A stretch of 64,000 bases of DNA. It comes from an uncultured Verrucomicrobiae bacterium (GTDB lineage: Bacteria; Verrucomicrobiota; Verrucomicrobiia; Chthoniobacterales; Chthoniobacteraceae). The stretch covers positions 352,001-416,000 of the forward strand of contig CAVYKI010000010.1 of NCBI GenBank assembly GCA_963769025.1. Direction: 5' to 3'. The position numbers and the translations under genes are program-made. A model generated the notes under the pieces. The model worked only from the letters and a program-made list of their open reading frames with translations. It made no database searches and had not been told where the DNA came from. Shown one piece after another: positions 35,692 to 47,440 of the stretch (positions are counted from its first letter, which is position 1; every line of letters begins with the position of its first letter).

Positions 35692-35865
35692 TCAGGCTTC
35701 GGTGTGACGCGCGAAATGCACCTCGACGCCCTTCGGCATGAGACGCTTGCGGCCACGCTGCCGGCGACGGGCGAGAATGGCGCGGCCATTCTTCGTGGTC
35801 ATCCGTTTGCGGAAGCCGAATTGCTGTTTGCGAGTGCGCTTGGATGCCTGATAGGTGCGTTTCAT
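35692..35865 (-). CDS. rpmH: 50S ribosomal protein L34 (not in the ORF track)
   Basis: Manual translation [57 protein letters not shown]. Confidence 0.95.
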
Positions 35866-35955
35866 GGTTGGAAAGTGTTGTCAAAAAGAGCGCGCAGCTT
35901 AGCGGGCAACCCTCCCCTGTCAACCCATCGGAGCGAATTCCCGAAAATACCGCAC

Positions 35956-36711
35956 CTACTCGACGCCGACGGTTTCCTTCGCCCCGGCGACGGCGTATTC
36001 GCGGTTGAGCTTCGCGATGACGGTCGCGGGGATTTCCGCGGGGCAGACGGCTTCGCACTCGTAGTAGTTCGAGCAGTTGCCGAAGCCTTCCTTGTCCATC
36101 TGCGCGACCATCGCGAGCACGCGGCGCTTCCGCTCGGGCTGGCCTTGCGGCAGCTCGGCGAGGTGCGTGACTTTTGCGCCGACGAAAAGCATCGCGCTGC
36201 CGTTCGGGCACGCGCCGACGCATGCGCCGCAGCCGATGCACGCGGCGGCCTCCATGGCGAGGTCGGCGTTCTGTTTCGGCACGAGGATCGTGTTGCCATC
36301 CGGCGCGCTGCCGGCGCGCGCGGTGATGAAGCCGCCGGCCTGCTGGATGCGGTCGAATGATGCGCGGTCCACGCAGAGGTCGCGGATGACCGGAAACGGC
36401 TTCGCGCGGAACGGCTCGATGTAAATCGTGTCCCCGTCCTTGAACTTCCGCATGTAGAGCTGGCAGGTCGTCGTCTCGCTCGGGCCGTGCGGGATGCCGT
36501 CGATGGTCAGCGAGCAGGTGCCGCAGATGCCTTCGCGGCAGTCGTGGTCGAATGCGATCGGCTCGTCGCCCTTGCGCGTGAGTTCGTCGTTCACGATGTC
36601 GAGCATCTCGAGGAATGAGGCCTCGGGCGGAATGCCGTTCGCGGCGATGTCCACGAGCCGGCCTTCGCTCTTGCTGTTCTTCTGGCGCCAGACTTTGAGT
36701 TTCAGGTTCAT
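35956..36711 (-). CDS. sdhB: Succinate dehydrogenase/fumarate reductase iron-sulfur subunit
   Basis: [33 protein letters not shown]. Confidence 0.93.
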
Positions 36712-36730
36712 TGCGCGGTCTAGGTAAAAA

Positions 36731-38746
<2,016 letters not shown>

Positions 38747-39455: not shown

Positions 39456-39687
39456 GTGTGGTTTTCAAAATGGAGATTCTTCCAACAACTGCTGACAGAC
39501 GCGCCGAAAACCGGAGGGGTCCGCGCTGTCATCCGCCTGCGTTGGCGGCAAGCGGCGCGGCATTGATATGCGGAAACGCCCGCCCATGGCAACTGGCACG
39601 AATGCCAAATTTTCAAAACAAGTCTCCCGTCGGATGGTAGGCGGTAGGACGGTTTAACTGTCTGACCGCCTGACGGTCCGGCCGCCA

Positions 39688-40278
39688 CTACCGCCGCAGC
39701 GCCGCGATCAGCTCGTCGAGCTTGTTGGCCACCGCCTGCACCTCCGCCTGCGTCGGCGGGTCGCTCACCGTCATGCCGAGCAAGGCCACGCCATTCGAGC
39801 CGTTCGAAGTCTGCGCCAGCACGCCATTGATGGCATTCCCCAGGTCCGCATTCGTCACCTCGCCCGGCACGCCTTGGATGCCCTGCTCGCCCGGCATCCC
39901 GCGCGGGATGCCAAAGCTGAAGTGCACACTGCTCCCGTCGAAGCTCACCGACACCGTCGCATTCTCGCCCGGATTCAGCGTCCCCACGCTGTCGATCACC
40001 GCATTGGCAAATGGCGGCCCCTGCGCGCCCTGCTCCCCGGTCGCCCCCGGCTGCCCGTCATTGCCCCGCGGGATGGCAAAGCCCAGATGCAGCACCGTCC
40101 CGGCGACGGACACCGACACCGTCGCATTTTCCCCCGGCCCGACCGTGCCCACCTCGTCCACCACCGCCGAGGTGATGGCCGGCAGCGCGTCGATGAGCTC
40201 CTTCAGCCCGTTGAACTGATCGCGGACGACTTGGGATTGCAGCGGGGAACCGGCGGCGGGAAGGGATGGGTCGAACAT
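39688..40278 (-). CDS. Collagen-like / fibre-like protein
   Basis: Two ~35-aa modules ending IPRG, each followed by Gly-X-Y runs; C-terminal heptad DPPTQAEVQAVANKLDELIAALRR; ATG 40278 preceded by an A/C-rich leader. Confidence 0.72.
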   Translation of the reverse strand: MFDPSLPAAGSPLQSQVVRDQFNGLKELIDALPAITSAVVDEVGTVGPGENATVSVSVAGTVLHLGFAIPRGNDGQPGATGEQGAQGPPFANAVIDSVGTLNPGENATVSVSFDGSSVHFSFGIPRGMPGEQGIQGVPGEVTNADLGNAINGVLAQTSNGSNGVALLGMTVSDPPTQAEVQAVANKLDELIAALRR

Positions 40279-40353: not shown

Positions 40354-40477
40354 GGACTGCGGCGGCTTGCCGCCGCTTTGGGTCGGCGAGCCTTGGCGAG
40401 CGCGGCGGGGCAACCGGAGCACCACCCCCTTCTCGGCAAGCCTCGAATCCAAAAGCGGCGGCAAGCCGCCGCAGTCC
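40354..40477. repeat. REP-like doublet with perfect 26-bp inverted arms
   Basis: GGACTGCGGCGGCTTGCCGCCGCTTT (40354-40379) and AAAGCGGCGGCAAGCCGCCGCAGTCC (40452-40477); each arm is itself a hairpin. Confidence 0.8.
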
Positions 40478-40540: not shown

Positions 40541-40782
40541 GGCTCGCCGAACCCTGCGGGCACCCGCTCGCCACCCCCGAAGCTGCGAAGCGGCACCCCA
40601 CGAGCTCCCGCTCGCCACCCCGGACGGTCCCGATGACCGCCCCAAAGGCTCCGACGAACCACCCCGAAGGCTCCGACGAGCCACCCCAAGGGCTCCGATC
40701 GACCACCCCGCAGGTTCCGATCGACCACCCCGCAGGCTCCGATCGACCACCCCGCGGGCTCCGATCGACCACCCCAAGGGGT
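40541..40782. repeat. Tandem array of 11 units of 22 bp
   Basis: Units start at 40541, 40563, 40585 ... 40761 with no indels; consensus CCGATCGACCACCCCGCAGGCT. Confidence 0.88.
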
Positions 40783-40915
40783 CCCCCTTCGAGCCATTCA
40801 AGATGCTCACTGGCATTGGTTTCTGAAGGACGGAGCCTTTCACGCTCCAAAAACCCCGGTTTCCCCATCCGCCCGGTCGGGATTTCGCGTCGAAAGAAGC
40901 GGTCCGCGCCGGGAT

Positions 40916-41515
40916 TTACGGCGTCGGCGGCGTCGGCGGCTCCTCTTCCGGGTCGCCGGCCACGCCGGGGAAGCGCTGTTTCAATTCGTCATACACGGTG
41001 TCCGCGCCGGCCACGTCGCGGCGCGCGGCCTGCCGCACGGTCTGGTAAAAGGATAGATCCGCCAGCCAGATCTCGCTGCCCACCAGCAGCAGCGAGTCGT
41101 CGAGCTGTTCGCAGAGCTTCTTCACTTCGCGGAAGATGTCGGCCAGCACCACGCGCAGGGCGCGGTCCTTGGTCACCTCGGCCGGGTCCACGAAGGGCGG
41201 CACGAGGTTCGGCGCGCTGGCCATGTAGCTCGCGCACTGTTCATCGAAGAGGAGCGACGCCGCGCCCAGCTTCGGGAGCTGGATGCGCTCGTCCTTGGTC
41301 AGGTTGATGAGGAACGGCAGCAGCGCCTTGATCTCGGTGAGCTTGGTCAGGATGGCGGTCCTGTTCGCCGCCGTCACTTCGGTGGAAATGCGATTGTCAT
41401 TAGGCATGGGTGGGTGGGGTTGTGGGTTGTCGGGCGCCATGCCATCCCACGTGAGCCCCGGCGCGTCCCATGTCAGGGCGGCGTCCGGGGAATCCCATGT
41501 GAGCGGCTGTGGCAC
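40916..41515 (-). CDS. Uncharacterised all-helical protein; alternative start ATG 41407; N-terminal LTWD x3 leader
   Basis: NRISTEVT..ILTKLTEIKALLPFLINLTKDERIQLPKLG...LDDSLLLVGSE...FYQTVRQAARRDVAGADTVYDELKQRF; GC-biased codon usage like host genes. Confidence 0.78.
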   Translation of the reverse strand: MPQPLTWDSPDAALTWDAPGLTWDGMAPDNPQPHPPMPNDNRISTEVTAANRTAILTKLTEIKALLPFLINLTKDERIQLPKLGAASLLFDEQCASYMASAPNLVPPFVDPAEVTKDRALRVVLADIFREVKKLCEQLDDSLLLVGSEIWLADLSFYQTVRQAARRDVAGADTVYDELKQRFPGVAGDPEEEPPTPPTP

Positions 41516-41646: not shown

Positions 41647-41777
41647 GTAGCCGCCGACGGCAGGAGGCGGGCACTTTGAAGACCGGAGAGCGGAACGACG
41701 TTCTTCGGCTGAATCTTCCTTTCCGGGTTCCGATTTCCGCTCTCAGGATCAGCCCGTCTCCTTCCGTCGTCGGCTAC
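41647..41777. repeat. Inverted REP pair (GTAG family)
   Basis: GTAGCCGCCGACGGCAGGAGGCGGG (41647-41671) ... CCCGTCTCCTTCCGTCGTCGGCTAC (41753-41777). Confidence 0.7.
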
Positions 41778-42049
41778 GGGGACGCTCCACACCGGTCCCT
41801 CCGCTCCGCCCGCGCATAGATCCGCGACGGCACCGTCTCCAGCGCGTGCGCCACGCGCGGGAGGGATTCGTTGTTGATGATCCGCCGCCCCATCTCCCAA
41901 TGCTCCACGGCCTTCGGGTCCACGCCCGCCCGCGCCGCCAGTTCCTCCCGGTCCATGCGCTTCTCCTCCCGCATCTCCGCGATCACCGGCCCCAATTGCC
42001 TGCCCAGCGGCTCCGGCACGCTGGGATTCAATGCCCGTCTCTTCTCCAT
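41774..42049 (-). CDS. XRE-family helix-turn-helix regulator
   Basis: IAEMREEKRMDREELAARAGVDPKAVEHWEMGRR...LPRVAHALE; GGAGG upstream. Confidence 0.82.
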   Translation of the reverse strand: MEKRRALNPSVPEPLGRQLGPVIAEMREEKRMDREELAARAGVDPKAVEHWEMGRRIINNESLPRVAHALETVPSRIYARAERRDRCGASP

Positions 42050-44147: not shown

Positions 44148-44570
44148 ATCATCAGGATGGTTATGTTGACGGGTCGAGCGAAAAACTGCACTGGCAAAGC
44201 AGATCGCTCGGGCCGTTGCGAATGCAGGGCCCGAGGGAGGAATGTTCCCATTCCGTTCCCCGTGAAATCAGGGTCAGAGGCAGAGGTCAACGCGCTCATT
44301 TTCGCAGACGGGCTCGCTGATATCGGAGGCGCTTTTGGACTGTCAACACCGAAATTCATCGCGAGGGATTACGTCTCGCCGCGGTAAAACCCGGCGTTAC
44401 CGCGTCAATCGGGTGCCGGTGTCGATACCCGTTTTGACACGACGAGGCGGACGCCGTTTTTCCGCTGCTGATCTCTGATGAAGCTCGATTCCCGGTGATG
44501 GCGGCGGTCGAAACCGAGGATGGATGGCTTGTCGGTGCGGGACCGGAACTGGGTTGAAAGCCCCTAAAGT

Positions 44571-44636
44571 GGAATAAGGGACCGGGAACAAGCGGGAACA
44601 AGGGACACAGGAAGGGACAGACTGTCCCTTTTTCCC
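44571..44636. repeat. Cluster of GGAAyAAGGGAC motifs and an AAGGGACAG-A-CTGTCCCTT palindrome
   Basis: Read directly; related motifs at 42173-42183, 42318-42330 and 42494-42509. Confidence 0.5.
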
Positions 44637-44740
44637 TCTTTTCCCTCGAGACGGGGCATCGCGCGGGCCTGTCCGCGTCCCTGTCCCGCGGGCAGGATTG
44701 CCCGTGGCACCTCGCACCGCTTTGGTTTTTCGACAGGCTG

Positions 44741-46463
44741 CTAGTGGTCCTCGCTTGTGACGCGGAGCACTTCCTCGAGGGTCGTGATGCCTTCCTTGCG
44801 CCTTGTCGATGCCGACCATGCGCAGCGATTTCATCCCTTCGCTGATGGCCTGGTTCTTGATCACCGCGGCGCTCGCGCGCTTGATGATCGAGCCGGCGGA
44901 TCGTCTCGCTGATGGGCAGCACTTCGAGGATGGGCGCGCGGCCCGACGTAGCCGCGGCCTTTGCACCGGCTGCACCCGGCGCCGCGATAGAGGGTCGAGC
45001 CGTCGTCTTCGATGCCGAGCTTCGTGAAAATCTCGGGCTCCGGCTGGAACTCCTCCTTGCAGTTCGGGCAGATGCGCCGGACGAGACGCTGTGCGCACGT
45101 GAGGATGACCGACGAGGAAATGAGGAACGGCTCGATGCCCATGTCGTCGAGACGCGTGATGGCGCCGGCGGCGTCATTCGTGTGGAGCGTGGAGAGCACC
45201 TGGTGACCCGTGAGCGCGGCCTTCACCGCGATGTCGGCGGTCTCGTTGTCACGAATTTCACCGATCATCACGATGTCCGGATCCTGACGGAGGATGGAGC
45301 GCAGCGCGCTGGAGAAATCGAGGCCGATGTCGCTCTTCACGGCGACCTGGTTGATGCCCACGAGCTGGTATTCCACCGGGTCCTCGACGGTGACGATGTT
45401 GTAGATCGGGTTGTTGAGCTCGCTGAGGATGGTGTAGAGCGTCGTCGTCTTGCCGGAGCCGGTGGGGCCGGTGACGAGGATCATCCCGTGCGGCGCGTCG
45501 ATCGCCTTCTTGAAGATGCCGAGCGTGTAGTCGTCCAGCCCCATGTTCTCGATGCTGCCGCCGAGGGCGCCCTTGTCGAGGAGACGGATGACGATCTTCT
45601 CGCCGTACACCGTCGGGAGCATGCTGATGCGCAAGTCGACTTCCTTGCCCGAGACGCGGATGCGGAAACGGCCGTCCTGCGGGAGGCGGCGCTCGGCGAT
45701 GTCGAGGCCGGCGAGGATCTTGATACGCGAGGCGATGGGCAATTGCAGCGCCTTCGGCGGCGAAGTCGCCTCGATGAGCGCGCCGTCCACGCGGTAGCGG
45801 AGTTTGATCTCCTTTTCAAAGGGCTCGATGTGAATGTCGGACGCCTTTTCCTTGATCGCCTGGACGAGGATGAGATTGACGATCTTGACGACCGGCGCGT
45901 CCTCGCTGTCCACGCGCCATCTGGTCGAGGTCGATCTCCTGCTTGGCGACCTTCACCTCCTCGACCGTGTCCGCGCGCGGCGGCCTCGGCGGCGTGGCGC
46001 AGCACCTGATCCATCGTCGCGCTCGACTGGCTCACGCCGGAGAGCGCCTCGATCACGCACGTCTCCGTGGTGATCATCGGGAAGATTTCGAGCTTCGTGC
46101 GCTGGCGCAGATCGTCGAGTGCGAGCACGTTCAGCGGGTCGGCCATCGCCACGAAGAGCTTGTTGCCCGAGCTTGCAGACCGGCACGAGCTTGTAGGCGC
46201 GCGCCATGTCCTTCGGGACGAGGTTCATCACGTCCTCCGGGATGCGCATCTTCGAGAGATTGATCGGCGGCGTGTCCAGGCAGCGGCCCATCGAGATGAC
46301 CATGTCCTGCTCGGTGACGTACTTGCTTGTCCGTCAGGATCTTCAGCAGGCGTCCGCCCTGCTTTTTCTGGAGCTGCATGGCCTCGTCGAGCTGGCCGGG
46401 CAGCAGGAGGCCGTCCTCGATCAGGACATCCGCGATTCGTTCACCGAAGGATTTGATGCTCAT
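44741..46463 (-). CDS. pilB: Type IV pilus/T2SS assembly ATPase (PilB/GspE); several frameshifts
   Basis: ASDIHIEP, LDIAERRLPQDGR, GPTGSGKTTT, TVEDPVE, LRQDPD, GEIRD, TGHQVLSTLHTND, CxxC pairs, EVLRVT end. Confidence 0.88.
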
Positions 46464-46479
46464 CTTTGGGCTGTAAAGG

Positions 46480-47440
46480 TTAGCGACGGTAGGAATCGAC
46501 GAGCACCTTCGACACCGCCTCGGGCGAGGCCAGGTGCCACTGGATGTTGTAGTCGAGCAATTGCTGCACGGCTTCCTTGCCGACTGCGTCGAAGGGATTC
46601 GCGAGCGCGACCATCATGCGTCCGCGAGATGATGTCGAACGGGACGATGAGGCGCCCGAGCGTGATCGACTCCGGGAGCATTTTCACGATCTGCCGGTCC
46701 ACGTCGTAGTATTCGACGGGAAGATAGGCGAACTTCGACCGGTCGAGGATTCCGCAGAGCAGATTCTCCATGTCCACGCCGCCGCGGGCGACGAGTTCCG
46801 CGATCAATGAAGCCGCGGGCTGTCCGCCCTGGCGCGCGCCGTTGCGCTTGCGCACCGCCATGAGCGCGGGCGTGAGCACGTCATCGGAGACAAGCCGGTG
46901 CTGGACCGAGGAATTTCGCCAGCGCGTCGTTGCCGTCCTCCGCCTTGTCCAGTTGCTGCGGCGATGGCCGACGCATCGACCGAGCCGCGCGAGCGAGACG
47001 CGCTCGGCGGACTGGGTCATCTTCGTCGCCATCAGGTTGCCGCCATCGGTCACGACACTGCGGAAATCCAAATTGATCGCAGCCTGCATCCGCGCCCGCC
47101 TGGGCCTCGGCGTGGCTGGCGCGCAGCCGCTCCTCGACCTCGCCCGAGCGCGGCGATGATCTCCGAGTTATCCGGGTCGTGCTGCAGGATGAATTCGTAT
47201 TCGAGCAGCGCGCCGGAGAATTGGCCGAGTTCCATGTGGGAATCGGCGAGTCGGCGGGCGACCACGAGTCCCTCGGCTCCGCTGGCCGAGTTTGAAGTAG
47301 GCCTCCTTCAGGATCTCCATGCTCTGCGTATCCTGGGGATTCGCCTGCGTGATGACCTCGAACATCTCGACGGTCTGCTGCAGTTGCTCCTGCTCCTCCG
47401 AAGTGAGCGGCTGGGTTGGGCTGGCTTCTATCGCTGGCAT
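46480..47440 (-). CDS. TPR plus GspE/PilB N-terminal-like domain protein; frameshifted
   Basis: QTVEMFEVITQANPQD..LKEAYFKLG, LADSHMELGQFSGALLEYE, YDVDRQIVKMLPE..IVPFD fragments in different frames; directly upstream of pilB. Confidence 0.6.

Follow-up and report, generated by a model that had tools for sequence, protein, structure and literature searches.

The window, the 64,000-nucleotide stretch of Verrucomicrobiae DNA analysed here, contains a tandem array of 22-bp units just downstream of a gene that belongs to no named family, which raises the question of whether the array is functional and, if so, whether it acts together with that gene. We refer to the gene as p1. On the minus strand the features follow one another in the order XRE gene, p1, a 132-nt leader, the array, a pair of REP-like hairpins and a further gene, p2 (Table 1). 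The reading that we favor, with a probability of roughly 45%, is that predicted dimers of the p1 protein coat the array as a series of double-stranded DNA sites. The p1-array system is apparently undescribed; our literature search, which mostly did not extend to subscription journals, found no published account of it.

Table 1. Coordinates of the cassette and its parts within the window
Feature	Position	Strand	Remarks
XRE-family HTH gene	41774..42049	-	upstream XRE gene present in 9 of 23 close loci
p1, helical gene without a family name	40916..41515	-	199 aa: 163-aa core from 41407 plus a Trp-Asp-rich N-terminal extension
Candidate leader dyad	40799..40823	-	12 of 14 pattern positions matched; offset -40 from unit 1
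22-bp array	40541..40783	-	11 clear units plus 2 degenerate ones to ~40499
Inverted pair of REP-like hairpins	40354..40477		51 motif copies across the genome, several near p2 genes
p2, collagen-like and phage-fibre-like gene	39688..40278	-	8 homologous places in the source genome

The eleven clear units of the array stand in exact 22-bp register, as the original prediction had claimed, and the letters of their variable 3-nt and 6-nt blocks are identical to those listed there. TRF assigned the array a period of 22 with a score of 191, and identity at a lag of 22 was 0.71, compared to at most 0.46 at the best lag in 2000 shuffles. The stretch of lower GC content that was said to separate the array from the p1 stop by about 130 nt measured 132 nt and has 60% GC, below both the array (73%) and the window as a whole (65%). 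It had also been proposed that units are most uniform near the gene and decay distally. This polarity is evident in the window copy, where it is strongest (identity between adjacent units is 0.83 at the proximal end and 0.51 at the distal end), but it is weak across the family (13 of 19 arrays, p = 0.07). Similarly, the alternation of fixed G-rich blocks and variable blocks describes the window copy well, but relatives instead show a degenerate palindrome in which the G-rich block is often swapped for its complement. The variable 3-nt and 6-nt blocks recur within arrays and are recurring alleles, not spacers, and these recurring blocks and the head-to-tail 22-bp units agree with the earlier exclusion of CRISPR. 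The start given previously for p1 (41407) requires revision, since relatives share an MPQPLTW...W-D extension that makes a GTG at 41515 the probable start.

We examined the region downstream of p1 homologs to determine how closely the array is tied to the gene. We fetched 47 loci, mostly from Verrucomicrobiota, and retained the 34 in which the p1 end was intact and was followed by over 100 bp of sequence, dropping those that were broken, partial or at contig ends. Wherever p1 was at least 70% identical, which applied to 25 usable loci, an array of the same 22-bp type was present. Of 365 unit-to-unit steps, 320 measured 22 bp, 28 measured 21 bp, 14 measured 23 bp and 3 measured 20 bp; both tallies include a few duplicate or near-duplicate loci. 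No array of this type was present in the nine loci with p1 at 42-57% identity. Four-fold sites of p1 differ from those in the window by 28-61%, and conservation of the array is therefore old.

The p1 family is large (at least 3,012 clusters at 50% identity) and patchily distributed within the phylum (7 of 301 genomes), the order (28 of 201) and the phylum of one Bacteroidota locus (32 of 401), with up to 18 copies per genome. Among 113 non-redundant p1 loci, 52 carried a downstream array and six more had one upstream only, as compared to none of 150 random windows. The periods of the 52 downstream arrays were 21 bp (21 arrays), 22 bp (13), 42 bp (10), 43 bp (4) and 44 bp (4). Distant p1 relatives from three phyla have 21-, 21/22- or 22-bp arrays with unrelated consensus sequences, and array sequences differ between p1 lineages even inside one order. 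Periods of 21, 21.5 and 22 bp fit the helical phase of DNA, not codons. Array-motif similarity rises with p1 identity, from about 0.3 below 40% to 0.7 above 70%, a pattern that fits either co-evolution or plain linkage. The unit motif is not scattered independently of the gene, for it occurs at two loci in the source genome and as one single match in 200 other genomes. A solo array with the same leader and no p1 gene lies at C3:1267859-1268056 in the source genome, and 2 of its 8 steps are off register, versus none of the first 10 in the window array.

No recurring motor, NTPase, integrase or Rep gene was found among the neighbors in 47 related loci, and in the comparison of neighbors p1 was the sole gene to keep company with the array across phyla. 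Between the p1 stop and the array in the window, a consensus scan returned no promoter and no terminator, and a looser scan returned one weak terminator. Of 25 21-bp loci, 12 have terminator-like hairpins in the corresponding interval (raw count). In genome G880 we detected no array within the scanned windows for 15 of its 18 p1 copies. These 18 p1-family genes (L130-L147) occupy unrelated sites and form groups of near-identical paralogs with shared hairpin-rich flanks; about six have a C-terminal extension of about 75-120 aa and three have upstream arrays. Their distribution looks like recent spread without a transposase.

At the level of the single unit, the family consensus A-S-C-C-Y-N/N-R-R-G-S-T at positions 2-13 is a quasi-palindrome. 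In a half-site profile built from 197 units of 21 arrays, the left half and the reverse-complemented right half have the same profile and common top words, and positions C4 and G11 are 98-99% fixed. The matching half profiles indicate that a unit is built from a pair of inverted 11-bp half-sites and that dyads recur at 11-bp intervals. Dyad symmetry exceeded that of column permutations in 35 of 44 arrays that were picked for a clear period rather than for symmetry (13 of them, of the 22-bp type, are kin), whereas the mirror control did so in 3 of 44 and a direct half-period in 1 of 44. Taken alone, the window array falls short of significance for symmetry (p = 0.30), owing to the predominance of a single half-site allele in it. 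There was no excess of pairing either within units (4.46 pairs versus 4.72 after shuffling) or at their junctions (4.70 versus 4.73). Paired positions thus do not covary, which indicates that there is no selection for local hairpins and is what would be expected of duplex sites.

We compared five close array pairs, which provide 140 cells per position pair, to examine how units change. Positions C4/G11 changed in 4 of 140 cells as compared to 33 of 140 at positions 7/8, and substitution rates on the two sides of the dyad corresponded (rho = 0.67, p = 0.024). Across the five pairs there were 241 substitutions versus only two 1-bp gaps and two whole-unit gaps. Divergence over whole arrays was nevertheless close to that at four-fold sites (0.06-0.23 versus 0.07-0.25), so that constraint appears to fall on the phase and on a few bases. 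Position-dependent substitution, rare indels and linkage to the gene all accord with the original interpretation, and of the three roles originally offered for it, a binding array fits best.

The p1 protein is modeled by AlphaFold2 as all-helical (pLDDT 93), with one long helix of 55 residues from 75 to 129. A homodimer model reached an ipSAE of 0.83, versus 0.00 for the best control; of 30 solved dimers 20 attained the former value, as did one of 23 single chains. At least 94% of contacts agreed among the dimer runs, with pLDDT of at least 88, and in the modeled dimer the long helices are antiparallel and cross near residues 95-99. p1 is thus predicted to form a two-fold symmetric homodimer. 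At 1.5 Å per residue the 55-residue helix would span about 82 Å, as compared to 71-75 Å for 21-22 bp of B-DNA. The protein has a net charge of -3, a set of conserved basic residues (R41, K46, K57, K80, K/R125, K/R129 and R145) and a tyrosine, Tyr121, that is 99% conserved. It was unmatched in Pfam, PHROGs, PADLOC, NCBIfam and PDB sequences, in plasmid records and, using patterns from close relatives, in viral contigs. Foldseek searches of PDB and viral structures gave nothing usable, the ESM Atlas returned hypothetical Bacteroidota clusters only, and the best VIA-align result reached Z = 5.0 over 47 residues at rmsd 2.7. p1 has no recognized DNA-binding fold.

The leader between p1 and the array may provide a starting point for assembly. 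A dyad of the pattern YAA-N4-HTSA-N3-TSAR-N4-TTR (14 scored positions) precedes unit 1 by 40-41 bp in 11 of 17 loci when at least 10 of 14 positions are required to match, relative to a background of 0.3-0.4% per position, with the pattern having been derived from the very loci on which it was scored. The dyad resembles a double IHF-type site with head-to-head half-sites, for which we consider it a candidate. One locus matches exactly the IHF consensus given in the accessible portion of PMC5224486. A scan with the strict IHF consensus was not significant in the leaders of 22-bp arrays and found no match in those of 21-bp arrays. The source genome has two HU/IHF genes.

If p1 dimers do coat the array, they would form an end-to-end row that places one dimer on each 22-bp unit and begins at the IHF-like leader site. 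The 55-residue helix would then set the period like a ruler, leaving the sequence free to change from one p1 lineage to the next. The weakest part of this proposal is that the resulting protein-DNA rod might serve as a cis handle for keeping or moving a small selfish cassette, perhaps in the manner of a centromere or packaging site for which the motor is supplied from elsewhere. A bolder version, which we regard as a long shot, would make p1 a widespread class of ruler proteins that build and maintain private arrays, with Tyr121 together with Arg41, Lys46 and Arg145 forming a nicking site unlike those of known recombinases and the cassette amplifying its units and moving without integrase or transposase.

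Arrays of similar period are not confined to p1. The source genome carries many further 21/42-bp arrays, several of them next to p2 copies and to other helical or helical+FN3 genes. In one FN3-linked family, an array in which almost all steps are 21 bp lies upstream in 31 of 44 loci, and 14 of 30 such arrays are dyad-symmetric. Only 1 of 16 other arrays in the source genome was symmetric, but the symmetric arrays of the FN3-linked family undid the idea that dyad symmetry is specific to p1. Because 21-bp arrays, many of them symmetric, thus stand beside helical families other than p1, a shared host factor is possible. Homology between p1 and the FN3-linked helical domain was not significant, and the similarity of their layouts is one judged by eye. 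In genome G472 there are at least six FN3-linked arrays (L180, L182, L184, L186, L188 and L189) of 13-24 units, each with a distinct 21-bp unit, and the great homogeneity of several of them suggests recent amplification. At C3:867897-869570 in the source genome, a truncated N-terminal fragment of an integrase adjoins a 42-bp array and a fragment of a helical gene.

The symmetry of the units might instead reflect a role as RNA, with the array transcribed and its self-complementary units pairing in many registers into A-form rods with 11 bp per turn, to which p1 dimers bind or from which 21-22-nt pieces are cut. Palindromic units are able to pair with one another, the window region has a folding z of -2.1, and all ten arrays examined were somewhat more stable than their column shuffles (z from -0.8 to -3.4, 12 shuffles each). 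In addition, a gene followed by an array and encoding a C2 dimer recalls TIGR-TasA, as far as the available description of that system goes. However, covariation is absent at both dyads, unit order mattered in just 2 of the 10 arrays, and the blocks recur, unlike unique spacers. Moreover, an Rfam search of the window matched nothing in the array (a single chance-level match fell outside it), some arrays lie upstream of genes, and terminator-like hairpins often precede arrays. We therefore consider an RNA role unlikely. A long fold-back of proximal against distal units likewise gained no support from unit-order shuffles. Lineage-private unit sequences are not what a shared host protein would predict, and this bears on a distinct possibility, that the array is a phased site for a nucleoid protein of the IHF/HU type or for the XRE regulator of the cassette, with p1 as a passenger. 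XRE proteins are generally dimers that bind palindromes. The IHF-like leader, the HU/IHF genes of the genome and the presence of 21-bp arrays beside several helical families also favor such a role, but an XRE gene was detected in only 9 of the 23 close loci and, by eye, an XRE-like upstream neighbor in only a few of 52 distant ones. We regard this possibility as somewhat less probable than an RNA role.

Slightly less probable again is that the array has no function and is a minisatellite or MITE-like by-product of the copying or moving of the cassette, its half-sites being homogenized by slippage and strand switching. Such an origin could account for divergence near the synonymous rate, for gains and losses of whole units, for the solo copy with its leader and for higher-order repeats of 42-66 bp, and it has a precedent in the leader and 23-nt repeats of BrickBuilt, as described in the part of that report we could consult. 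It does not readily account for symmetric, position-specific conservation, for the scarcity of indels despite many G4/C4 runs, or for a period of 21-22 bp held over three phyla by unrelated sequences, and the unit motif is not dispersed. By contrast, the idea that arrays encode heptad-repeat peptides or form G-quadruplexes is largely refuted and appears very improbable. The original argument against coding holds, because periods of 22 and 43 bp break reading frames; moreover, both strands lack an open frame in 12 of 50 arrays, and the heptad score (0.62) is at the null level (0.61), even though several 21-bp arrays can be read as heptads and open frames numbered 50 versus 37 expected in 27 arrays. 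G-quadruplexes had been one of the roles first offered, and the window copy is indeed G-rich (G4Hunter-type mean 0.68), but G skew flips along related arrays and a canonical G4 motif occurs in just 3 of 17, the window array not among them.

Compared to known systems, coating of the array by p1 would work most like the array of a centromere-binding protein, minus the motor. The tubC-TubR and parC-ParR centromeres, as presented in the accessible text of PMC6009700, similarly place a small protein gene beside phased short repeats on which filaments assemble. The p1 cassette shares this arrangement in layout only, a filament being no more than proposed for it. It differs from those centromeres in being chromosomal, in lacking a motor NTPase, in having its array mostly downstream and in using inverted half-sites rather than direct iterons, and p1 has no fold match. 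TIGR-TasA (PMC12045711, consulted in part) likewise combines a small gene without accessory genes, a following array, a C2 dimer built on a long helix (in p1, predicted) and a pseudo-symmetric unit. A TIGR unit, however, is 36 nt long with two variable 8-9-nt spacers and box C/D motifs according to the same text, whereas the p1 unit is 21-22 nt, has no unique dual spacers and shows a profile without box C/D. No Nop-domain match for p1 was found by Pfam, PDB sequence or fold lists.

Like the p1 array, the BrickBuilt minisatellite-MITE of Porphyromonas gingivalis lies between genes and is made of imperfect tandem units that span roughly two turns of the helix (23 nt); it too has a conserved leader, and some of its columns are conserved and others variable, to judge from the part of PMC4596501 available to us. 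BrickBuilt, however, has 19 dispersed copies beside unrelated genes, whereas the p1 array has two copies in the genome and accompanies one gene family across phyla. In the type I-E CRISPR leader an IHF-like site is likewise fixed relative to the first repeat, at -9 to -35 (PMC5224486, in the same accessible portion) as compared to -40 to -16 here. The p1 array differs in having no spacers, no Cas1 found and a leader motif that is a degenerate double site. Cas1 (PF01867) had no match in the source genome, which is 83% complete. At L089 and L090, p1 lies between two opposite-strand genes that resemble cas1 and cas4 by eye, and the array at L090 has a 43-bp period. A bioRxiv report (10.64898/2026.10.21.760802), in the sections accessible to us, places its periodic bands at 5, 18 and 60-79 nt, with no band at 21-22 nt, using a filter that drops some periods divisible by 3; its VIPR elements alternate GGY and NN with a period of 5, as opposed to 22 in the p1 array.

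If p1 does read its array, the system would amount to a compact protein-DNA code of a new kind, for which nature supplies many orthogonal pairs, and it would explain common but so far unexplained bacterial minisatellites together with the spurious heptad ORFs on them. A length rule (two helical turns with two-fold symmetry) has been kept across three phyla while sequence is private to each lineage, and the 22-bp clade indicates that this rule is not about codons.

The position of the cassette bears on how it spreads. In two genomes of the same genus, alignment to the window stops at 39613-39616, a short distance upstream of the sdh genes, and in two more it is limited to the sdhC-like gene. 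Because the matches of relatives end by this point and the cassette was matched in none of five loci fetched from related genomes, we conclude that it is a lineage-specific insertion and that its site is variable. Its patchy distribution, its changing positions and the genomes with several copies together suggest that the cassette is selfish. In 14 of the 16 close loci whose downstream sequence extends 1.3 kb or more, p2 lies 3' of the array; p2 has weak matches to phage tail and fibre families. Besides the window, p2 copies are present on source-genome contigs C2, C3, C6, C9 (two), C12 and C13, where they trail various helical or helical+FN3 anchor genes, many of which begin with a Trp-Asp/Gly-rich peptide. 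The inverted pair of REP-like hairpins is a separate dispersed element sitting within the cassette.

Three smaller observations concern gene integrity and insertions. At C13:20242-20880 in the source genome, an anchor gene and p2 are separated by the insertion of a 4-helix-bundle gene (23S_rRNA_IVP/bAvd-like) that has a 16-bp repeat tract. At L034:848-894, p1 is broken near its start by an insertion of about 85 bp. Within the window, at 35704-38733 and 44356-47089, several housekeeping-like genes (sdhA, pilB-like) seem to be split across frames, which suggests assembly frameshifts in the source genome.
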